A stretch of 49,878 bases of DNA from Pseudomonadota bacterium (GCA_039030355.1 JBCCEI010000001.1:1-49878), one strand, 5' to 3'. Counted from the first letter of the stretch, positions 2,383 through 14,630 are shown. The notes: generated by a model not told the origin, from the letters alone. Translations and numbers: made by a program.

Positions 2383-3519
2383 ATGTCTGCTGCAGCCAAA
2401 GAAATCAATCCCGATGCCAAGTTAGCAATGCGCTCTTATATACAGCGTGTTGCAACCGGCCCGGAATATAGTAAAGACATTTCATTTGAAGAAGCACGTG
2501 ATGCCATGCGCCAAATTTTGAATGGCTCTGCAGATCCTGTGCAAGCCGGCATCTTTTTAATTGCCTTGCGAATGAAGCGTGAAACGCTAGATGAAAACGG
2601 TGGTTCACTACAAGCCATTATCGATGCTGCCAATATTGTTACCGCAGATGTAGATCATGTGATCGATGTTGCTGACCCTTACGATGGTTACACGCGTGGT
2701 TTACCGGTTTCACCATTTATACCAGCTGTGCTCGCAGCGTGTGGCATGCCTGCTGTTTCACATGGTGCTGAAGCCGTTGGCCCTAAATATGGAGCAACAC
2801 ATAGAAAAGTATTACGTGCCGCAGGGATCAATGTTGATTTAGATATGCAACAAGCTGTAACACAAATTAATAATAAAGAAGTGGCTTGGGCATATATAGA
2901 CCAAAAAGCCATTTGCCCATCTCTACATAATTTAATTCCACTACGCACACAAATTGTAAAACGCCCAGTGATCACTACAGTAGAAGTGTTAATTGGTCCT
3001 GTGCGTGGCAAAAAAACGACTACATTAATGACTGGATATGTTCATAAGCCTTATCCACCTGTTTACGAACATCTAGCCAAAATTTCGGGTTTTAATTCAG
3101 CCGTTTTGATACGTGGTGTTGAAGGCGGCGTTATTCCATCTTTAAAACAAGAATCAAAATATTTTCAATACTTAGATGGTGGCGATCTTCAAGAAATAGA
3201 AATTCATCCAGATCATGTAAACATTCAACAAGATGTTCGCGCAGTTCCACTACCAGAACTGGATTCTGCGAAAAGTGCTGGAGATGAAACAGCGGCTAAA
3301 ATTGACACTGACCAACTAGCAGCAGAAGCAGCGAAAGTGGGTATAGCTGCACTAGAAGGCAAACAAGGGCCAGCACGCGATAGCTTGATTTACTCAACAG
3401 CCATTATGCTCACACACATGGGCATGGAAAATAATTTACATGCTTCTTCTGAACTAGTGAAAGATGCAATCGATTCAGGCAAAGCATTAACACATTTTCA
3501 AAAAAACCAATTACATTAA
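2383..3519 (+). CDS. Glycosyltransferase family 3 / anthranilate phosphoribosyltransferase (TrpD)-like paralog with divergent active-site motifs
   Basis: 378 aa. The N-terminal helical domain (ARDAMRQILNGSADPVQAGIFLIALRMKRET) and core align by eye with TrpD, but the GTGGDG motif reads ADPYDG and KHGNR reads SHGAE. Confidence 0.65.
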   Translation: MSAAAKEINPDAKLAMRSYIQRVATGPEYSKDISFEEARDAMRQILNGSADPVQAGIFLIALRMKRETLDENGGSLQAIIDAANIVTADVDHVIDVADPYDGYTRGLPVSPFIPAVLAACGMPAVSHGAEAVGPKYGATHRKVLRAAGINVDLDMQQAVTQINNKEVAWAYIDQKAICPSLHNLIPLRTQIVKRPVITTVEVLIGPVRGKKTTTLMTGYVHKPYPPVYEHLAKISGFNSAVLIRGVEGGVIPSLKQESKYFQYLDGGDLQEIEIHPDHVNIQQDVRAVPLPELDSAKSAGDETAAKIDTDQLAAEAAKVGIAALEGKQGPARDSLIYSTAIMLTHMGMENNLHASSELVKDAIDSGKALTHFQKNQLH

Positions 3520-3547
3520 ATAGTATTTTTTTATATAAGGAGAAACC

Positions 3548-3742
3548 ATGGACCAAGCATACAGAGATGCAATTACAAAGATGGAAACCGCAAACGTAGA
3601 CCCAGAATATGTACTAGGCTGGCAAGGCGGCTACTTAGGCCACCCTGAGCGCGAAGAACAACGCGTAACCGATGCCTACACAGCGGGCTTCGAAGATGGC
3701 CAAGCTAAAAATGACAGCAACTTTGATAGTTGGAAAAAGTAA
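3548..3742 (+). CDS. Small acidic hypothetical protein (64 aa)
   Basis: Strong RBS (AAGGAGA) 6-7 nt upstream of the ATG, directly downstream of the TrpD-like gene. No recognisable motif. Confidence 0.5.
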   Translation: MDQAYRDAITKMETANVDPEYVLGWQGGYLGHPEREEQRVTDAYTAGFEDGQAKNDSNFDSWKK

Positions 3743-4126
3743 CTAGCCCAAAACTTTGACCGCTAAAAACGCAAAAAAGAATCCAACTGCATAAATTAAT
3801 ATAGAAAGTATAAACACCCATTTGTTTATGCTTCGCATCCGCATGCATGACACCGCCAAGTCCGGATCAACCGGACAAGGCGCATTTCTCATCTTCCATT
3901 GAATAAAGCCTGTTAACAGTAGCAATAATCCTGCAACGACAAAGACCTGTGCTTTATACGTTGATAACCATATTAGCTGTGGCACGGTAGATACCAGACC
4001 CGCTAGTGCAGCGCCTGCGCCAATGGTGACAAGTAATGCAGGCAAAGCACAACAAATTAAAGTTCCTGCACTCGTAAATAAACTTAAAAAAGGCAGTAAA
4101 TAACTTTCGCTTGATACTGTCTTCAT
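3743..4126 (-). CDS. MerT-like heavy-metal transport membrane protein
   Basis: 127 aa with three predicted TM helices. CC pair in TM1 (GTLICCALPALLV, compare MerT CCLGPLVL) and a second Cys pair in the loop before TM3 (PCPVDPDLAVSC). ATGA overlap with the upstream HMA-domain gene. Confidence 0.55.
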   Translation of the reverse strand: MKTVSSESYLLPFLSLFTSAGTLICCALPALLVTIGAGAALAGLVSTVPQLIWLSTYKAQVFVVAGLLLLLTGFIQWKMRNAPCPVDPDLAVSCMRMRSINKWVFILSILIYAVGFFFAFLAVKVLG

Positions 4127-4467
4127 TGTTCAGCCACTGATCTAGATCTATTTATTTCTTTTATGTCATAACCAGAATCGGTCACAAGTTTTGTGATTTC
4201 TTCATCAGCCAATTGTTTACCTTCTTTTAATGCGATCAGAATATGATGTTTATCTAGACTTACATCAATTCCAGAAACCTCATCTTTTCGCATGAACACT
4301 TTTTCAATTGCATTTGCACAAAAATCACAAACTAATCCAAATGCTTTCACTGTGACGACTTCACCATTTGGGTCTACCTCACCTACTTTGACGCTAGGCA
4401 AATCACTTGCTATAACATTAAAATTACTTAAAAAAATAATTAAAAAGGTAACTATTAATTTCTTCAT
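4123..4467 (-). CDS. Periplasmic heavy-metal-associated (HMA, MerP/CopZ-like) metal-binding protein
   Basis: 114 aa. Signal peptide, then an HMA fold with CxxC metal site (GLVCDFCANAIEKVF). Confidence 0.7.
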   Translation of the reverse strand: MKKLIVTFLIIFLSNFNVIASDLPSVKVGEVDPNGEVVTVKAFGLVCDFCANAIEKVFMRKDEVSGIDVSLDKHHILIALKEGKQLADEEITKLVTDSGYDIKEINRSRSVAEQ

Positions 4468-4481
4468 TCCTTTCTCCTTTT

Positions 4482-5123
4482 TTAAAATCGATGCACAAAA
4501 TTAAACAGCACATCTCCTTGATCACTTACGCCGGCCTCAAAAAGATCAGCGCCTTTAAATAAACGTACTAATGGGGTTGCTACAAACTGGTCTTTTGATT
4601 CAGGTGCATGACGGACTTCCATCATCAACCACGTATGCCAATTTCCATACTCCGTAACATAGGGTGCAAAACCAAACCGTGCTTTTTGGCGGAAACTATC
4701 TGCTATGTTGCCTGCATCCGTGTACCGGTTTGCATAAGAAAAAAAGACTTTTCTAGTTTCCCAATCTGCGGCTATGCCGCCATATGCAGCAAGTTCGGCG
4801 CGGTTGTCGAAATCACCTTCATCTGAATGTGCAAATCCAATTCCAGACATAAGGTAAAAATTTCCTTGAGACGCTTCTGCATTCCAACGCTTGATTAAGT
4901 TATTTATATGGAGCGCATGGATTTGATAATCACGGTCGCGCCAATACTCAACGTGATAACCAATGGAGTAGAACGCAGTTGGAGAATAATGAATAAAACC
5001 GGAATACCGATCTGCATCATTAAATGTAGACACGGTCCATCCACCTGGATAAGACACAGGTCTTGCATGTGCTTGTATCGTTGCTGAAATAATCAACAAC
5101 AGTATTATTCGAAATAACATCAA
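4482..5123 (-). CDS. Exported hypothetical protein, possibly a small outer-membrane beta-barrel
   Basis: 213 aa. Cleavable signal peptide (..SATIQAHA/RP), an aromatic-rich alternating pattern, and a C-terminal F (NFVHRF). Confidence 0.5.
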   Translation of the reverse strand: MMLFRIILLLIISATIQAHARPVSYPGGWTVSTFNDADRYSGFIHYSPTAFYSIGYHVEYWRDRDYQIHALHINNLIKRWNAEASQGNFYLMSGIGFAHSDEGDFDNRAELAAYGGIAADWETRKVFFSYANRYTDAGNIADSFRQKARFGFAPYVTEYGNWHTWLMMEVRHAPESKDQFVATPLVRLFKGADLFEAGVSDQGDVLFNFVHRF

Positions 5124-5184
5124 CGTAACTCCTTACGTTTTAAAAAACAAACGCGTGTAAGCCGATAACGGCTTAAATTAGGAG

Positions 5185-5568
5185 TTAGCTATTTGGTGGT
5201 GGAGTGGGAATTTTTTCGTGGATTGAAGGAAGCGCAAACAACACACTTTGCGTATAGCTTTTAGTGGATGTTTGGCCAAATTTATCTGGTTGCGAATTGA
5301 ATGTTGCGGTGACACTAATACAAGAATCACATTCTAAACCGCAACACGAATCATCTGTTTCTTGTTCTGGAGCGACCTCATCTCCCATTGAATGGCACGG
5401 GGCCTGCTCATCAGACATGTTCATAGGCGCTTCTTGCTGCATATTTTGCATATCCATATGCGCACAATAATTCATACTGGCCTGTAATGAGCCAATAGAA
5501 AACATTGTAATTAACAGATATGTAAAAAGTGTTTTCACGATGTATGCTTCAGTGATGCTTGGTATCAA
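5185..5568 (-). CDS. Exported Cys/Met/His-rich putative metal-binding protein
   Basis: 127 aa. Hydrophobic N-terminus, then CAHMDMQNMQQEAPMNM, CHSMGDE and CCGLECDSC. First gene of the minus-strand metal module. The exact start is uncertain. Confidence 0.45.
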   Translation of the reverse strand: MIPSITEAYIVKTLFTYLLITMFSIGSLQASMNYCAHMDMQNMQQEAPMNMSDEQAPCHSMGDEVAPEQETDDSCCGLECDSCISVTATFNSQPDKFGQTSTKSYTQSVLFALPSIHEKIPTPPPNS

Positions 5569-5793
5569 TCTACTCTTATGACTGAACTGTGTCTAGATAG
5601 TTCATCTTTGATTTTTGACATCGTATCGTGATCGATTTCCACATTCATATAGTTAGTTGCTTTCACAATCTAGTTTGCAAACACCTATAAGTTATTGTTA
5701 GCAAGGCATATTCCTAAAGTTACTAGTAAATTTGCCGATATTTACACATGGCCATTATCCAGTAGAACATGCTTAGCTTTGAGCAGTACGACC

Positions 5794-6516
5794 ATGAAGA
5801 ATAAAAAAACGTATTATCAAATCCTACACGTCCAACCCGATGCGCCTTTGGAGGTGATTCGTTCAAGCTACCGAACAATGATGCAAAAACTTAAAATGCA
5901 TCCCGATCTAGGTGGATGTCATGAAAATGCCGCGGAAGTGAATGAAGCATATAATGTGCTTACAAACCTAAGTAAACGAACCGCTTACGACGCTAGCTTG
6001 TTAGCAAGTGAAAATACAATTGAACCAGGACATACTCAAGAAAACAAAAAGGCTAAACCTAAGCAATCAACACAAAAATTCTATAAAAAAAATAATGAGG
6101 AAATTTGCACCTTTTGCAATCAACCTCATTTTATGGGAATCAATATTGAACCAAATGACGTCTGCCCTAAATGTGAAAGCCCACTTTTCGCAGCAACCAA
6201 ACAAACCGTAGAAATATGCGGTAAACGCACTATTCAAAGAATTAATAAAGAATGGCCACTTAGGTTTTACACATCATGGCCACACGAAGAATCATTTTCT
6301 GGGAAAACGAGAAATGTTTCATTAAATGGGATGCAACTCGTTACAACAGCAGAACTTGAAATGAACCAGGTAATAAAAATTGATAGCAATGAATTATATG
6401 CTGTTGCAAGAGTCGTGAATCATCAGCAATTCGATCAAGAATGGCGTTATGGTTTGGAATTTTTAACATTACGCTTTCATCAAGCACATGGAACATTTGT
6501 GTCGCTTGAGATTTAA
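5794..6516 (+). CDS. J-domain (DnaJ-like) protein with zinc-ribbon and C-terminal PilZ domain
   Basis: J domain with HPD (KTYYQILHVQPDAPLEVIRSSYRTMMQKLKMHPDLGG), CxxC..CxxC (CTFCNQ...CPKCES), and PilZ motifs RTIQR and NVSLNG. The start was moved to the ATG at 5794 (MKNKKTYYQ) from the ORF-track 5695. Confidence 0.7.
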   Translation: MKNKKTYYQILHVQPDAPLEVIRSSYRTMMQKLKMHPDLGGCHENAAEVNEAYNVLTNLSKRTAYDASLLASENTIEPGHTQENKKAKPKQSTQKFYKKNNEEICTFCNQPHFMGINIEPNDVCPKCESPLFAATKQTVEICGKRTIQRINKEWPLRFYTSWPHEESFSGKTRNVSLNGMQLVTTAELEMNQVIKIDSNELYAVARVVNHQQFDQEWRYGLEFLTLRFHQAHGTFVSLEI

Positions 6517-6594
6517 TAAATCCGCTTCGACCGCCATGGATGGTGGAAGTACAGAAATTGCAGGAGCAAACTTCTGTCGGCCAATTAGTGAGCC

Positions 6595-6615
6595 CATGGA
6601 TGGGCGAATATGAGT
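6595..6615. repeat. Left copy of a 21-bp inverted repeat (catggatgggcgaatatgagt) bracketing the AT-rich islet
   Basis: The reverse complement of 9038-9058 is catggatgtgcgaatatgagt, a 20/21 match. It is preceded at 6574-6594 by a degenerate hairpin-arm-like sequence (ctgtcggccaattagtgagcc). Confidence 0.7.
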
Positions 6616-6658
6616 AACAACAGGGAAGTTGTTTCAGATTAAAGTTAGATGATTTCAT

Positions 6659-6689
6659 AATGTCCGCTTTCGGCCAGAAGCAGACATTT
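6659..6689. repeat. Single hairpin unit of the islet repeat family
   Basis: ATGTCCGC (6660-6667), 12-nt loop TTTCGGCCAGAA, GCAGACAT (6680-6687). It lies 12 nt downstream of the stop of ORF 6701..7306. Confidence 0.75.
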
Positions 6690-6700
6690 AAATTATTGCT

Positions 6701-7306
6701 CTATTTTGTGATTTTGATTGTATTAACGACTTCACTAATCTCCTCTCTCGTTCCGGTTCTTTCGTCTTGTCGAGTCCCAGCACCTATCATGTAATAGTGA
6801 TGCTCTCTTGGAACAATCCATAACTCTGATGTAATTGGAAATGATTTTCCATCTGCTGATGCAATCGTATAGTTAAATCGAGTATACGCAGCATTGATAC
6901 TGGATATTTCAGTATCAGATGGCTCTTGTACCATCTCAAAATCACTAAACACATTACTAAACTGAGGTATCAGGATATTGAGAATTTCTTTTGGGCCAAT
7001 ATCCTGAAATTCGGCCATAGGCCTAGTATTCACCTTTATACTTGGATTAATGTCACCAAATGTTGGATCGTGTTTTACCATTACGACTAATGGAGTACTC
7101 GAGTATTTAAGAACTAGGTTTTTAAAATTTTCGTCATCTAACTCAATTTTTTCGAAATTTTTTAAATTCTCTTCAGCGGTCATATAATGCCAAGAACTTG
7201 GCTTTGTAATTTCAAAGCCCACAGCATTATTCTGAAAGTTATCTGACGACTCTGAAAATGAATTAGTTGAGAACGTAAGAATGATGAGCAGTAAAAGAAT
7301 TTTCAT
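6701..7306 (-). CDS. Exported hypothetical protein (201 aa)
   Basis: Clear signal peptide (MKILLLLIILTFSTNSFS). No motif recognised. AT-rich. Flanked by repeat units on both sides. Confidence 0.6.
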   Translation of the reverse strand: MKILLLLIILTFSTNSFSESSDNFQNNAVGFEITKPSSWHYMTAEENLKNFEKIELDDENFKNLVLKYSSTPLVVMVKHDPTFGDINPSIKVNTRPMAEFQDIGPKEILNILIPQFSNVFSDFEMVQEPSDTEISSINAAYTRFNYTIASADGKSFPITSELWIVPREHHYYMIGAGTRQDERTGTREEISEVVNTIKITK

Positions 7307-7343
7307 TGGATTTCCTAAAATTTGTTGATTAACTTATTGACAG

Positions 7344-7450
7344 AAAATGTCCGCTTTGGGTCGTTACCGGACATTTTAAGTTTGTAGTTCATTGATTCCA
7401 ACCTGATTCGCTCCAAATTACGTCTGCTTACGGCCAATAGCGGTCATTTT
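7344..7450. repeat. Full (two-arm) copy of the ~110-135-bp islet repeat
   Basis: Left arm AAAATGTCCGC-TTTGGGTCGTTA-CCGGACATTTTA (7344-7378). Conserved central CCAACCTGA box. Right arm ACGTCTGC-TTACGGCCAATA-GCGGTCATTTT (7420-7450), which abuts the stop codon of ORF 7450..7836. Confidence 0.8.
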
Positions 7451-7836
7451 CAATTTGCATATTTATTTGATAATGCTGAAAAAGCTACAGAAGATAAAAA
7501 TCCAAAAACTATCGAACTTAAATAAATTGGTATCAAATTAGGCCAAATAACATCGCCGTATATGGTACTTGTTAAATCAAGTAACAAGGTAAAACTTAAT
7601 CCAACTATTGGGACAATAAAACCATACATAGATACACTTAGCTTTTGTTTCCAGCCAAAAATTGCTCCTCCAACTATTGAACCTGCTTCAGCAGGATCTG
7701 GAATAAAGTAGCAATAGATTGGTGAACTATGTAGCCACCCACACAAGTTTATGTAAATCTTCCACCCAATTACATAAATTATGAGAAATACAAAAATAGC
7801 AATTAACAACTTTACAATTGGCAATTTTTGAATCAT
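7450..7836 (-). CDS. Small integral membrane protein (128 aa, about 4 TM)
   Basis: Four hydrophobic segments. No motif recognised. Bounded by repeat units. Confidence 0.55.
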   Translation of the reverse strand: MIQKLPIVKLLIAIFVFLIIYVIGWKIYINLCGWLHSSPIYCYFIPDPAEAGSIVGGAIFGWKQKLSVSMYGFIVPIVGLSFTLLLDLTSTIYGDVIWPNLIPIYLSSIVFGFLSSVAFSALSNKYAN

Positions 7837-7851
7837 TGATTTTTCTACTCA

Positions 7852-7882
7852 ATATGTCCGCTTTGGGTCGTTAGCCGTCAAT
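7852..7882. repeat. Single, partly degenerate hairpin unit of the islet repeat family
   Basis: ATGTCCGC (7854-7861), loop TTTGGGTCGTTA, GCCGTCAA. It sits between the stop of ORF 7892..8311 and the start of ORF 7450..7836. Confidence 0.7.
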
Positions 7883-7891
7883 TATCTAGGA

Positions 7892-8311
7892 TCACCAAGG
7901 ACCTCTTAAATTTATATCTACGCCCTCGCCAGCAGGAGTCATTTTTATTGTATATGCGACTTTTTGCCCATCTACCCTTTCAACAATCCAAGTTTCAGTA
8001 ATAGAAGTAGTATCTTTCTTCAATAAACGTGTTTCAATAATTTTTCCACTTGCTTTTCCTTCTCCCAACTCGGCTTTTGTTATTAAATCTTCAATATCTT
8101 TTCTTAGCGTAGGATCTGCTACTGTGGGGGTAACTCTTCCAAGTGGGTATTTTTCCATTATTACACCACCATTCACATCTTTTGATGTCCACCGATAAGG
8201 CGAACCATCTTGCTCTAACTTGTCATTTAGATCATTGACAGCATTGTGAACTGATGTATTCGCACATCCATATAGTGTAAAAACGAAAAATAGAGATAAT
8301 AAAAATTTCAT
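7892..8311 (-). CDS. Lipoprotein, function unknown
   Basis: Lipobox FTLYGC after a signal peptide (MKFLLSLFFVFTLYGCAN). The start was moved to the ATG at 8311; the ORF-track start at 8341 is a TTG. Confidence 0.6.
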   Translation of the reverse strand: MKFLLSLFFVFTLYGCANTSVHNAVNDLNDKLEQDGSPYRWTSKDVNGGVIMEKYPLGRVTPTVADPTLRKDIEDLITKAELGEGKASGKIIETRLLKKDTTSITETWIVERVDGQKVAYTIKMTPAGEGVDINLRGPW

Positions 8312-8359
8312 ATATGCCCCACGAGAAAAATAAATTAACAAACTTACTTGACGATAACT

Positions 8360-8477
8360 AAAATGTCCGCTTTGGGTCGTTAGCAGACATTTTAGAAGTG
8401 TTGTTCAGAGTTTCCAACCAGACTTCCCCTTATTTAACCTTCATTATGACCTCTTTCGGCCAATAGCGGACATTTTA
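8360..8477. repeat. Full (two-arm) copy of the islet repeat
   Basis: Left arm AAAATGTCCGC-TTTGGGTCGTTA-GCAGACATTTTA (8360-8394). Central TTTCCAACCAGACT. Right arm ATGACCTC-TTTCGGCCAATA-GCGGACATTTTA (8446-8477). The outermost 12 nt of the two arms are perfect inverted repeats of each other. Confidence 0.8.
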
Positions 8478-8480
8478 CTA

Positions 8481-8930
8481 TTATTTGTTATTTCTGAGAG
8501 TCTTATTATATCTGCCTGCAATTAAGTACCAACAACAATAAGAAGTCACAACAGCAATTATAGGTAATAGCAGAAAAAGAAAATACTCAATCCAATCTCG
8601 AAAACTTTCAGGAAGTTTGTAATTTAATGAATATATAAAAAAAGCAAAAGTTAAAATAATAGATAATAAAATTGGGGTTCTCACAAACATCCAAAAATTT
8701 AAGCAGTCGTTAATTGAAAACTTTTTAGCACGGTCTATTACAGTAGCAATGAATACGCTAGCAAATACAGAATAAACCAAATAGATAATGACTAAGATAG
8801 GACCCCATCCTAGACAGCCAGGCCCAATGTCACATAACGTTCCTAAGTAGTGGTAAATTAAGTAAACAGCGATAAATCCAATGATAGGTGCGAGCAATGT
8901 TGCTACCCATTTCCGGTACTTATCTGACAT
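8481..8930 (-). CDS. Integral membrane protein (149 aa, about 4 TM)
   Basis: Hydrophobic segments throughout. No motif recognised. Bounded by repeat copies. Confidence 0.55.
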   Translation of the reverse strand: MSDKYRKWVATLLAPIIGFIAVYLIYHYLGTLCDIGPGCLGWGPILVIIYLVYSVFASVFIATVIDRAKKFSINDCLNFWMFVRTPILLSIILTFAFFIYSLNYKLPESFRDWIEYFLFLLLPIIAVVTSYCCWYLIAGRYNKTLRNNK

Positions 8931-8943
8931 GATTCTCTATTTT

Positions 8944-9078
8944 ACATTTGTCCGCTTTGGGTCGTTAGCAGACATTTTACTCTTGAGCATTGATCTAACC
9001 AACCTGACTCTAATCAGTACGCGTCATCCAAGACGCGACTCATATTCGCACATCCATGTGCTTACCCAAAGGACATGG
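8944..9078. repeat. Third full, expanded copy of the islet repeat; contains the right copy of the 21-bp inverted repeat (9038-9058)
   Basis: Left arm TTGTCCGC-TTTGGGTCGTTA-GCAGACATTTTA (8948-8979). Central CCAACCTGACT (8999-9010). An inserted CGCGTC..GACGCG hairpin (9021-9038). Then actcatattcgcacatccatg and an inverted arm ATGTGC-TTACCCAAA-GGACAT (9056-9076). Confidence 0.7.
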
Positions 9079-9110
9079 GGAGAAGAATGATGAAATCATT
9101 CTTCTCCCCA
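9076..9110. repeat. Perfect 16-bp-arm palindrome overlapping the stop codon of ORF 9096..9707
   Basis: tggggagaagaatgat (9076-9091), loop gaa, atcattcttctcccca (9095-9110). The right arm encodes the last residues, WGEE-stop, of the minus-strand gene. Confidence 0.85.
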
Positions 9111-9707
9111 TACACCACTCTCAGGTATTGGTGGTGGTGCAAAATCGGTTTCATCTAAAGCTGCACTTTGTCCTTTAAACACTCGTTTAAGTGCTAACAA
9201 CATTTTTGGAATCTCGGAATCAATTACGTAATCAGGAATCCATTTGTTATCTTTTTCACCCATTACTTCTTGCACATGGTTTCCTGCTATGCGTCGCATG
9301 GAATAACTTGGTCCATCTTCGTTTGTAAAACCACAGTCGGAATATTCGTTCATTCGTTCGTTTAATAAATTAATAAAATTGGAACGATATTCGCCTTCTT
9401 GCACATCGGAACGGTTACTTTGCATGGTGTCGGCTAAATGTTGACCCAATGCATTAATGAAAATTTCACGTTCGGTTGCGGTCATGTCATCAAATACCAT
9501 GCGATCAGCCACATGTGCGCCAAAGGCCACAAACTCTGCAATGACATCTAAACGCTGAAAACGCGATACGGTTTCAAACCCTTCATTTTCTAAAAATAAG
9601 CAGGACTCCCCTGCTAATACCCATAGATTAAAACCAATCACCCCAGCAATTTCTTCTGGCTTGCGCTTTCTATCCGCCTGATTCCATTTGGTTTTTAATC
9701 GTGCCAT
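9096..9707 (-). CDS. Conserved-looking hypothetical cytoplasmic protein (203 aa)
   Basis: Long ORF with normal codon texture, divergent from ORF 9777. No motif recognised. Confidence 0.6.
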   Translation of the reverse strand: MARLKTKWNQADRKRKPEEIAGVIGFNLWVLAGESCLFLENEGFETVSRFQRLDVIAEFVAFGAHVADRMVFDDMTATEREIFINALGQHLADTMQSNRSDVQEGEYRSNFINLLNERMNEYSDCGFTNEDGPSYSMRRIAGNHVQEVMGEKDNKWIPDYVIDSEIPKMLLALKRVFKGQSAALDETDFAPPPIPESGVWGEE

Positions 9708-13735: not shown

Positions 13736-14437
13736 TTACGACTCTTGTGCCTCACCGACAGCGTCGATCCCCTTATGTGGCATAAATAAGCCACATCCAT
13801 ATAACCTGCCTTCACCCAATCCATGCTGTTGTAAGTGCACAGATTCCTCAACTTCTAATCCATCAATCATCAGACTGCGTGTTAGCAAGTCATCACCTGG
13901 CATGCGCAGAATATGCGCTCTCCCACACATCATCTTTTTAACGGTTATTCCCTGTTCTTCTAGTAACTGAGCAGCATGATTTAAAAATGCCTCTTCGTCA
14001 TCCATATTATCTGTTGCGACATAGCGTGCAAAGATCGTGGTTAATGCAGAAAGTGGCTTCATATGTGGTGCACTAAGCAACAAGTCATTCCCTGCAACAT
14101 TAAGTGCCTTTCCAGCTAGATTTGATGTGTCATCGATGCGGTTTTTTGGAACACGTAACATAAAACGAGTGCGCCGAGATAAACTTAAAAGCGCATCAGG
14201 TTCCTCGGGGCGAATCCAACCATTGCCAGACTCTGCACCATGAATTAGATGAATGCCCGTTTGTGGTTCCTTTGCAAACCAAGGCAAAACCGCTTGGATA
14301 ACTTGAGATAATTCATAAGCATGATCCAATGGAAGTTGTTTGCATTGCACCTTAAAAGAAATATCAACAATATCATCAGGCACTAAATAATGTTTTTGCC
14401 TCTCTTCTTGATCATTCCAGTACATAAATCTATTCAT
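13736..14437 (-). CDS. Stand-alone Cas6/Cmx6-like (RAMP superfamily) protein
   Basis: About 233 aa from the ATG at 14437; the ORF-track start at 14440 is a TTG. C-terminal glycine-rich loop GLGEGRLYGCGLF fits the Cas6 G-h-G-x5-G-h-G signature. The N-terminal VDISFKVQCKQLPLDHAYELSQVI and the overall length resemble my recollection of the Cmx6 (type I-MYXAN Cas6) family. No other cas gene or CRISPR array is in the window. Confidence 0.5.
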   Translation of the reverse strand: MNRFMYWNDQEERQKHYLVPDDIVDISFKVQCKQLPLDHAYELSQVIQAVLPWFAKEPQTGIHLIHGAESGNGWIRPEEPDALLSLSRRTRFMLRVPKNRIDDTSNLAGKALNVAGNDLLLSAPHMKPLSALTTIFARYVATDNMDDEEAFLNHAAQLLEEQGITVKKMMCGRAHILRMPGDDLLTRSLMIDGLEVEESVHLQQHGLGEGRLYGCGLFMPHKGIDAVGEAQES

Positions 14438-14630
14438 CAATTTTATTTGCTGAAGTAAACACAGCTTCTAAAATATCTTCCCAATTTTCGGGTGTATCTT
14501 GAAATGGTGGCCGAACATCCATACGAAAAAACATTTCACCTTGTTTAACTTGTTCAGTGAGCTTGTTTTTTAACTCCTCGAAAGATTTAAGCTCATGATG
14601 CTCCATAAGCAATTCACTTAACCACAACAT
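14430..14630 (-). CDS. Small hypothetical protein (66 aa) coupled between the TauD-like and Cas6-like genes
   Basis: Its ATG overlaps the TauD-like stop (TGATG). Its stop overlaps the Cas6-like start by 8 nt. Confidence 0.5.
   Translation of the reverse strand: MLWLSELLMEHHELKSFEELKNKLTEQVKQGEMFFRMDVRPPFQDTPENWEDILEAVFTSANKIDE

Follow-up and report, generated by a model that had tools for sequence, protein, structure and literature searches.

Organization of the islet

In a 49,878-nt stretch of DNA from a Pseudomonadota bacterium (GCA_039030355.1, JBCCEI010000001.1:1-49878; the 49.9-kb window), positions 6570-9110 hold an islet in which four minus-strand open reading frames (ORFs) are interleaved with seven plus-strand copies of a 28-nt palindromic unit. 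We describe this islet as a candidate gene-cassette array, the 28-nt unit as its candidate recombination site, and a small tyrosine recombinase, YR208, as a candidate for the enzyme that acts on it. Sequence reading and a repeat finder placed the units at 6660, 7347, 7420, 7854, 8363, 8446, and 8948; site positions are given throughout on the plus strand of the window. The comparison material comprised 240 site-bearing related loci, 1.35 Mb in all, and L-numbers are labels of comparison loci. The sites fall into two classes, A and B, according to their central bases, and the features of the islet are the following.

6660..6687, plus strand: B-type site, ATGTCCGCTTT CGGCCA GAAGCAGACAT, 13 nt past the ORF1 stop
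6701..7306, minus strand: ORF1 (putative cassette 1), 201-aa exported protein of a conserved hypothetical family
7347..7447, plus strand: two-site composite with A site at 7347-7374, B site at 7420-7447, and a CCAACCTGA box (7398-7406) in the spacer
7450..7836, minus strand: ORF2 (putative cassette 2), 128-aa predicted membrane protein
7854..7881, plus strand: single A-type site between ORF3 and ORF2; travels with ORF3
7892..8311, minus strand: ORF3 (putative cassette 3), 139-aa lipoprotein; alternative TTG start at 8341
8363..8473, plus strand: two-site composite with A site at 8363-8390, B site at 8446-8473, and a CCAACCAGA box (8414-8422) in the spacer; site starts 83 nt apart
8481..8930, minus strand: ORF4 (putative cassette 4), 149-aa predicted membrane protein
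8948..8975, plus strand: A-type site upstream of ORF4, 17 nt from its start, with a CCAACCTGA box farther on at 8999-9007

The repeats are far more frequent than expected by chance and are confined to the islet. Searching the window for the 28-mer with up to three mismatches gave 4 matches compared to 0.00 expected, and a degenerate loop pattern gave 7 matches compared to 0.16 expected, six of them sites and the seventh (6990) a chance match within ORF1. All seven copies are intergenic and lie within 2.5 kb, and the 49.9-kb window contains no site copy outside 6570-9110. The CCAACCTGA box occurs at 7398-7406 and 8999-9007 and its variant CCAACCAGA at 8414-8422, and the islet contains three composites of ~110-135 nt, the third of which differs from the other two. 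None of the four ORFs matches Pfam. No Rfam family matched the repeat, either at gathering thresholds on the whole window and 15 related loci or in E-value mode on 6400-9300, and a tRNA scan of the window found none.

Much of this layout had been described in an initial annotation of the window. The five repeat positions that it listed are all present, the four minus-strand ORFs do lack a recognizable family, and its statement that one arm abuts the stop codon and the other precedes the next start agrees with the distances observed (a site 2-13 nt past each stop and 17-51 nt ahead of each start). Its assignment of the islet to the accessory part of the window is also supported. The ORFs, which it called more AT-rich than their flanks, are so, with an islet GC content of 0.34-0.35 compared to about 0.40-0.43, although the contrast is modest. 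Two of its three full two-arm elements hold (7347-7447 and 8363-8473), whereas the second arm of the third (8944-9078) is a degenerate inverted A-like site at 9056-9076 within a partial array-end element. The single arms that it placed at 6659-6689 and 7852-7882 are there, and an additional degenerate B-like arm lies at 6570-6592.

Anatomy and conservation of the 28-nt site

The unit consists of 11-bp inverted arms (ATGTCCGCTTT and AAAGCGGACAT) around a 6-bp asymmetric centre, an 11-6-11 layout that describes it better than the 8-bp stem and 12-nt loop proposed initially and that dif-type tyrosine-recombinase core sites likewise have. Centres fall into two classes, GGGTCR for A sites and SGGCCA for B sites. 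The consensus of 380 non-redundant copies is ATGTCCGC TTT SGGYCR WWA GCGGACAT, and the arms are perfectly inverted over 11 bp in the alphaproteobacterial form (TTT GGGTCA AAA). Stem position 4 is mismatched in 72 of the 380 copies and forms a compensated pair in 10; at stem position 6, 100 copies are altered on one side (70 C.A and 30 T.G) and 6 are doubly compensated. This rarity of compensation indicates that the sequence is conserved as such, which points to recognition by a protein over selection for pairing.

The composites fold as long imperfect hairpins, and the plus strand, which is complementary to the ORFs, folds better, with z-scores of -4.9 and -5.1 compared to -3.4 and -1.7 (on the plus strand, -5.1 for composite 7347-7447 and -4.85 for composite 8363-8473). 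Strand folding had been suggested as a check for attC-type structure; it returned the long hairpin and the strand preference, but attC-type R/L boxes were not assignable in these folds. We dropped structured RNA as the primary explanation, as the strand bias of wobble pairs is mild (136 vs 88) and compensatory changes are rare. Likewise rejected was a coding hypothesis, in which the site is read as ATG TCC GCT AAC GAC CCA AAG... (MSANDPKRT), because copies are intergenic and occur in both orientations, and their variation does not follow codon logic. Spurious ORFs do cross tandem sites in L018, L073, L093, and other high-GC alphaproteobacterial loci (MSALGQKRT, VRFGSKADI, VRFTPESGH), and a further site variant with the same arms and a different centre (TTTACCCCCGAAA) is interleaved with A and B sites in those loci.

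Distribution and grammar of the sites

Scanning a genome collection (one genome per species) with an 18-nt degenerate core gave at least 133 matches. GCRGWC comes next in 83 of the 133 matches listed (about 0.001 by chance), and AT comes just before in 91 (0.06 by chance); because both flanks exceed chance, the 18-mer matches are homologous sites and not noise. The hosts among these listed matches include many Alphaproteobacteria (Pseudolabrys and others), Woeseiaceae, Thiotrichales, Coxiellaceae, other Gammaproteobacteria, and sporadic members of other phyla, and several metagenome-assembled genomes (MAGs) among them have copies on at least 3-4 contigs (Pseudolabrys SMAG_U1162 on 4, MFD04850.bin.2.70 on 4). 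A metagenome scan with the window's own variant added at least 120 further contigs with GC contents of 30-60%, many of which end at a site. Almost the same 28-mer is found in Alphaproteobacteria, in Gammaproteobacteria, and beyond these classes, and only 3 of 158 sites lie inside ORFs. Exact-sequence and keyword searches of the open-access literature found no description of the 28-nt site, which does not in itself prove novelty.

The arrangement of the sites follows a grammar. When short pairs (≤175 nt) are read on the TTTSGG strand, A precedes B in 44 of 44 cases, and start-to-start spacings are discrete (45/47, 57/59, 82-84, 91, 101-104, 163, and others), with the commonest class, 82-84 nt, being that of the 8363/8446 pair in the window. 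Single-ORF intervals between same-strand sites (90 in total, median length 705 nt) run from B to A in 43 cases, from A to A in 32, from B to B in 9, and from A to B in 4, and in low-GC loci the ORF is opposite to the TTTSGG strand in 25 of 31 intervals. Pair order and interval counts together yield the layout (A-spacer-B)-ORF-(A-spacer-B), with single sites allowed, and the window has the same layout.

Genes for small RNA-binding proteins recur beside sites in several unrelated loci, encoding RNA recognition motif (RRM)-type proteins (L010, L129, L171, L190, L229) and cold-shock proteins (L037, L159, L167, L233). One alphaproteobacterial locus, L111, has two matches to the chrB-b RNA motif (RF03086) above the gathering score, at 7640-7692 and 7809-7862, which are unrelated to the repeat.

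Sites at the joints of variable gene modules

Homology between site-bearing contigs tends to end at sites. Site-selected contigs were compared in all pairs that share ≥150 nt with ≥88% identity; of the 20 internal homology ends, 9 fell within 12 nt of a site, compared to the 2% of sequence that lies that close (P about 9e-11). In L159 and L233, for example, a shared 643-nt segment begins exactly past the outer arm of a site, the centre of which is inverted between the two contigs, and ends at a CCAACCT box.

Gene content also varies between arrays, as the initial annotation had proposed to check by comparison of related genomes. Two ORF3 homologues, with 80% and 75% identity, were found in 5.8 billion clusters. 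The 75% homologue resides on a 1.3-Mb contig (L288) in a series of 12 or more small ORFs on one strand, each bracketed by A or B sites, and this array, which is at another locus, begins ~125 nt past the tRNA gene that follows dnaG-rpoD. Nucleotide identity between L288 10045-10500 and the window is 72.5% over 462 nt and covers ORF3 and its 3' A site, nothing more; ORF1, ORF2, and ORF4 are not present in the L288 array. In L137, which is syntenic with 12.7-16.8 kb of the window, a solitary A-ORF-B unit is part of a ~3.3 kb non-syntenic insert that interrupts the synteny. One family of proteins, ~160 aa in length and unmatched in Pfam or NCBIfam, has a transmembrane helix at the N terminus and is present in 18 copies in 13 loci (L040, L088, L125, L126, L161, L166, L179, L187, L202, L207, L213, L216, L231), each copy bracketed by A/B sites. 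This family is often in tandem and is the commonest cargo in mid-GC (about 50-55%) contigs.

Homologues of the other islet genes occur in different settings. Among 1.84 billion library proteins, ORF4 has nine homologues, the closest of which matches over the full length at 47% identity, so the islet ORFs are real genes. ORF1 has 72 homologues at 32-53% identity. In Marinobacter sp. (L276-L279, about 3000-5700) the homologue is a classical integron cassette with an attC site, GCCTAAC...GTTAGAT, at 4927-4985, and in L280 (1594-3851) it belongs to another array, of small ORFs on one strand, whose 45-nt repeat (AAATGTATAACGTGACACGGGGTCTCGTTAATTCAACTGTTA, 4 copies) is a different one and may be a short attC or another junction family. 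No A/B sites surround the ORF1 homologues in Marinobacter, L280, and L281, which have attC, the 45-nt repeat, or nothing in their place. Directly upstream of the Marinobacter homologue is a group II intron reverse transcriptase, and downstream are Rhs toxin/immunity genes; one strain has an IS21 element inserted after the homologue.

These results bear on the initial comparison of the islet with a chromosomal integron cassette array. The cassette-like layout stands, given that ORF3 and its site recur in another array, that the ORF1 family includes an attC cassette, and that breakpoints coincide with sites, but identity with attC sites and integrons does not. We consider it highly improbable that the islet is an integrase-less cluster of attC sites (CALIN) whose ~110-nt composites are atypical attC sites served by an IntI encoded elsewhere. 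Such a cluster would explain small, same-strand, AT-rich ORFs of unknown function split by ~110-135-nt imperfect palindromes, intervals of cassette-typical size, better folding of the strand complementary to the ORFs, as for attC bottom strands, and true attC cassettes with ORF1 homologues in Marinobacter. Reading and alignment of the three composites, however, gave outer ends of AAAATGTCCGC and GCGGACATTTT and not the canonical RYYYAAC and GTTRRRY, the absence of which had been remarked upon initially, and the sole AAC (GCTAAC), which occurs only within the A site, is on the wrong arm, inside the 3' arm (ORF orientation), where R' (GTT) is due. Single 28-bp sites suffice as junctions (7854 and the L288 array). 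Searches by tblastn with IntI1 found no IntI in the window, as had been noted before, or in the related loci; the sole IntI1-like match, in L109, was rejected as an integron integrase because it is XerD next to dsbC, a housekeeping protein. Moreover, attC sites are conserved in structure and not in sequence across classes, the opposite of what we observe for these sites, which are abundant in Alphaproteobacteria, a class from which integrons are reported to be entirely absent (PMC9668308).

A minimal tyrosine recombinase encoded between inverted sites

YR208 is a 208-aa protein that comprises little beyond the catalytic domain of a tyrosine recombinase (PF00589). Among solved structures it is closest to the catalytic domains of XerD and XerH, its weak NCBIfam matches are to tyrosine-type invertases, and its database label is simply 'integrase'. 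YR208 occurs 5 times in the 1.35 Mb of site-selected DNA, about 3.7 per Mb, compared to 0.07 per Mb in the PLSDB plasmid collection. At E ≤ 1e-20 the family numbers 8000 clusters or more, the majority from contigs of ~1 kb. One identical protein, P0004, is encoded in at least 24 contigs with unrelated neighbours and another, P0059, in 19; because identical copies appear in dozens of unrelated contexts, the YR208 unit moves, beyond the inversion of a fixed switch.

In every copy with enough flanking sequence (P0004 and P0059 loci), an A site marks the left end and an A site in inverted orientation the right end, with one further site internal to each, and the YR208 gene also lies between inverted A sites in L162, L197, and L230. 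The copies cease to resemble one another within the sites: the outer arm is variable, as if derived from the target, and the right-hand centre and inner arm do not vary. L260 and L261, alike in the left flank and in YR208, diverge beyond the right A site, and in L258 and L261 the DNA past the right A site begins a cassette of the 160-aa family. Site-like sequences also flank YR208 homologues on plasmids of Agrobacterium, Acetobacter, Paraburkholderia, and C. metallidurans (pMOL30), and an E. coli IncY plasmid has the half-arms ATGTCTGC and GCGGACAT on either side of a YR208-homologue gene. We found no link between repeats resembling repetitive extragenic palindromes (REPs) and a tyrosine recombinase in the open-access literature, which again falls short of proving novelty.

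The initial annotation had judged a REP family, including bacterial interspersed mosaic elements (BIMEs), at least as likely as cassettes. In this explanation, REP, BIME, or REPIN (paired REP hairpin) repeats are spread by a trans-acting transposase, either a REP-associated tyrosine transposase (RAYT) or another enzyme, their 3' stem-loops stabilize or terminate mRNA at the RNA level, and the cassette-like appearance results from accumulation in poorly constrained accessory DNA. The sites are indeed extragenic palindromes, with one abutting every stop codon in the window; many MAGs have copies on several contigs, assemblies break at sites, and the fold of the composite is a long hairpin like that of a REPIN, with z as low as -5.1. 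Transposases of the IS110 family (DEDD), known to target REPs, are encoded beside sites in L019, L044, L099, and L162 (downstream of the recombinase element). The fit is nonetheless superficial, and we regard this explanation as unlikely, although it is the main rival of the cassette reading. With a search for intI or a RAYT gene having been suggested, neither was found in the window or the related loci, and the tyrosine recombinase YR208 was found between inverted sites; for RAYT/IS200-like genes the threshold was E ≤ 1e-3, and the negative is weak for very distant relatives. The GTAG head is absent. The two sites of a composite are direct repeats by their asymmetric centres (44 of 44 short pairs), whereas those of a REPIN are inverted, and mismatches in the stem are frequent and seldom compensated. 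Each REP/RAYT system is specific to its lineage, in which it is inherited vertically (PMC3337134; RAREFAN preprint), whereas the 28-mer is common to bacterial classes. Finally, the presence of 7 copies in 2.5 kb of the window and none in the other 47 kb, the strict A-then-B and ORF-in-B-to-A grammar, and the ORF3-plus-site unit common to two arrays would be unexpected for passive repeats.

Promoter-like boxes in the spacers

The 82-84-nt class splits into high-GC and low-GC subfamilies, and both window composites belong to the latter, which shares AAGGGGAAgTCAGGTTGGAA-N17-tAAAAT. On the ORF strand this motif resembles sigma-70 -35 and -10 boxes, with the -10 box extending two bases into the A site. 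The minus strand of the window has TTGGAA-17-TAAAAT at 8417-8389 ahead of ORF3 and at 7401-7373 ahead of ORF1, and a promoter scan reported TTAAGA-17-GATAAT ahead of ORF2. The promoter-like boxes are conserved in 7 low-GC elements. In a separate observation, spacer box TCCAACCTGATTC (window 7396-7409) recurs ~60 nt upstream of the YR208 start in L247, L248, and L250-L254, an unrelated high-GC context; the match to the box in these L247-type loci (CCAACCTGATTC) spans 13 nt.

Overlap of A sites with the predicted -10/+1 region of the spacer promoters, and an inverted repeat of fixed spacing that is conserved by sequence over pairing, would also be expected if the 28-bp palindromes were operators, bound by a conserved dimeric transcription factor that co-regulates small genes with no mobility involved. 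We give this possibility very little credence, however, as sites also lie directly past stop codons and between convergent genes, mark homology breakpoints, bound a multi-copy recombinase element, and cause assembly breaks, and their neighbours are unrelated accessory ORFs that form no conserved regulon.

Array ends, flanks, and host

The islet is bordered by the following features.

6523..6645, plus strand: array end element, full copy of ~125 nt; palindrome CCGCCATGGATGGTGG, hairpin CAGAAATTGCAGGAGCAAACTTCTG, degenerate B-like site 6570-6592, palindrome GCCCATGGATGGGC then GAATATGAG
9006..9078, minus strand: incomplete copy of the end element in inverted orientation, comprising a small hairpin (9020-9037), the inverted repeat arm (9038-9065), and a degenerate A-like site, also inverted (9056-9076)
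9075..9111, minus strand: perfect hairpin of 17 bp where the flanking gene 9096-9707 ends; outer boundary, outside the array

The two end-element copies contribute a 28-nt terminal inverted repeat (arm 6588-6615 vs arm 9038-9065, 89% identity), which is the only notable long-range inverted repeat in the window. Homologues of the end element lie at array ends in L133, L031, L109, and L086, and the partial copy at 9006-9078 is 84% identical to L133 895-950. An exact 15-nt repeat, TATTCGCACATCCAT, at 8257-8271 and 9043-9057 has its first copy in the lipobox-coding part of ORF3 (LYGCANT) and its second in the palindrome of the end element; it might be a chance match or a trace of the origin of the end element.

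The flanking genes are near-identical on two Logan contigs of one sample (SRR22824298) from the same strain. These contigs stop at 6606, inside the end element, and at 8950, inside an A site, as multi-copy or variable DNA causes assemblies to do. The islet ORFs beyond these breaks are not on record in the same-strain Logan assembly, and exact look-ups of ORF1 and ORF4 in public assemblies returned no record. Neighbouring genes of the host include dsrAB, dsrEFH, and dsrC, and the host is therefore a sulfur oxidizer, with about 40% GC. A 233/234-aa protein with a Pfam Cas6 match (PF09559) is encoded at 13736-14440 (minus strand) of the window and at 5271-5972 of L001, set among dsrC-like, TauD-like, and 2OG-Fe(II) oxygenase genes beside dsrAB/dsrEFH; no CRISPR array or further cas gene was noticed near it.

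Interpretation of the islet as a possible cassette array

The sites form a family with a defined grammar, occupy the joints of modules whose cassette content varies, and are physically associated with YR208 elements. From these sequence comparisons, we judge that there is about an even chance that the islet is a four-unit gene-cassette array, analogous to an integron but based on a different and apparently undescribed site/recombinase system. The sites would be double-stranded core recombination sites of the dif or lox type, with two recombinase-binding arms and a 6-bp crossover region, on which a YR208-type recombinase encoded elsewhere in the genome would act in trans. Sites with like centres would recombine, and a cassette could thereby be excised as a circle and inserted at another copy of the element, with the ~110-nt A-spacer-B element taking the role of attC. 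In the low-GC subfamily, the spacer would supply the sigma-70-like promoter ending at the A site (TTGGAA-17-TAAAAT), and the B site just past the stop codon would form a 3' stem-loop, making each cassette a self-contained expression unit. The window would hold only the non-autonomous part of a YR208-bounded system.

The islet functions like an integron array or a set of plasmid dif (pdif) modules and resembles REP/BIME repeats, and by their defining features it is a member of none of these groups. Integron arrays and CALIN, such as the Vibrio cholerae repeat (VCR) arrays of Vibrio, likewise consist of small, mostly same-strand, AT-richer ORFs of unknown function in cassette-sized intervals with palindromic junctions of ~60-140 nt, and share with the islet a gene content that varies between genomes, a common gene pool (the ORF1 family), and a suspected tyrosine recombinase. 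By contrast, the element here is composed of two autonomous 28-bp sites that also occur singly, its cassettes may carry their own promoter, and its candidate recombinase is a 208-aa protein limited to the catalytic domain. REP/BIME/REPIN-RAYT systems of Enterobacteria and Pseudomonas also have short, multi-copy extragenic palindromes past stop codons, paired hairpins, an associated enzyme gene flanked by inverted repeat copies, and targeting by IS110-family elements. Unlike in those systems, the associated gene here encodes a tyrosine recombinase (PF00589) and not an HUH Y1 transposase, and the copies cluster in variable arrays and delimit exchangeable gene modules.

The 28-bp site with 11-bp arms and a 6-bp centre also matches the format of the pdif modules of Acinetobacter plasmids and of dif sites and the integrative mobile elements exploiting XerC/XerD (IMEX), in which small gene modules bounded by sites likewise occupy different contexts and the recombinase acts in trans. 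XerC and XerD bind a dif consensus, for example TTATGTTAAAT, to which the arms described here show no resemblance. Cassette sites here are direct (same strand), not inverse, have two centre classes, belong to chromosomal arrays, and are associated with a dedicated family of small recombinases. FimB/FimE-type minimal tyrosine recombinases resemble YR208 (~200 aa, essentially a catalytic domain, gene between inverted repeats), but identical YR208 copies are found in dozens of unrelated contexts.

Several observations weigh against a YR208-driven cassette array. No YR208 homologue is present in the window or within 10 kb around the L288 array, and in the contexts of P0091 and P0103 and on plasmids of Vibrio and Acidovorax the sites near YR208 are degenerate or missing. 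YR208 elements could target the sites, as IS110 elements target REPs, and play no part in the spread of cassettes. Sites in high-GC Alphaproteobacteria look dispersed and follow no clear orientation rule, which is REP-like behaviour. Solitary A-ORF-B units are not yielded by a simple model of single-site integration, and breakpoints at repeats of 28-110 nt could reflect homologous rather than site-specific recombination. The long-hairpin fold of the composites, better on the strand complementary to the ORFs, leaves room for a single-strand mechanism. With respect to expression, the number of promoter-like matches in the islet is not above that in shuffles (16 vs 11.2 ± 4.2), and the promoter-like box is not common to the high-GC subfamily.

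Broader significance

To our knowledge, integrons are regarded as the sole platform of general use for the storage and reshuffling of single-gene cassettes in bacteria, and it is still puzzling that Alphaproteobacteria lack them. We tentatively raise the wider possibility, for which we put the likelihood well short of even, that the sites and YR208 constitute a pan-proteobacterial cassette system that parallels integrons and evolved separately, uses 28-bp dif-like 11-6-11 sites of two heterospecific classes and a minimal 208-aa recombinase with its own ~1-kb mobile unit, and works in groups that lack integrons, such as Alphaproteobacteria.

On the more modest reading, the sites still define a repeat family of very high abundance with no entry in Rfam and no description in the literature searched, a result that is useful in its own right. 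If the cassette reading is true, there would be a second cassette platform that is defined by sequence and is easily scanned for, that spans Alpha- and Gammaproteobacteria as well as plasmids of Betaproteobacteria and enterics, and that has cassette genes in common with integrons and ties to a recombinase family of at least 8000 clusters labelled 'integrase'. A compact recombinase and a 28-bp site with two classes that do not cross-react would also be a candidate tool for genome engineering. The annotation of accessory islets of small ORFs would change, and many assembly breaks in MAGs would be explained.

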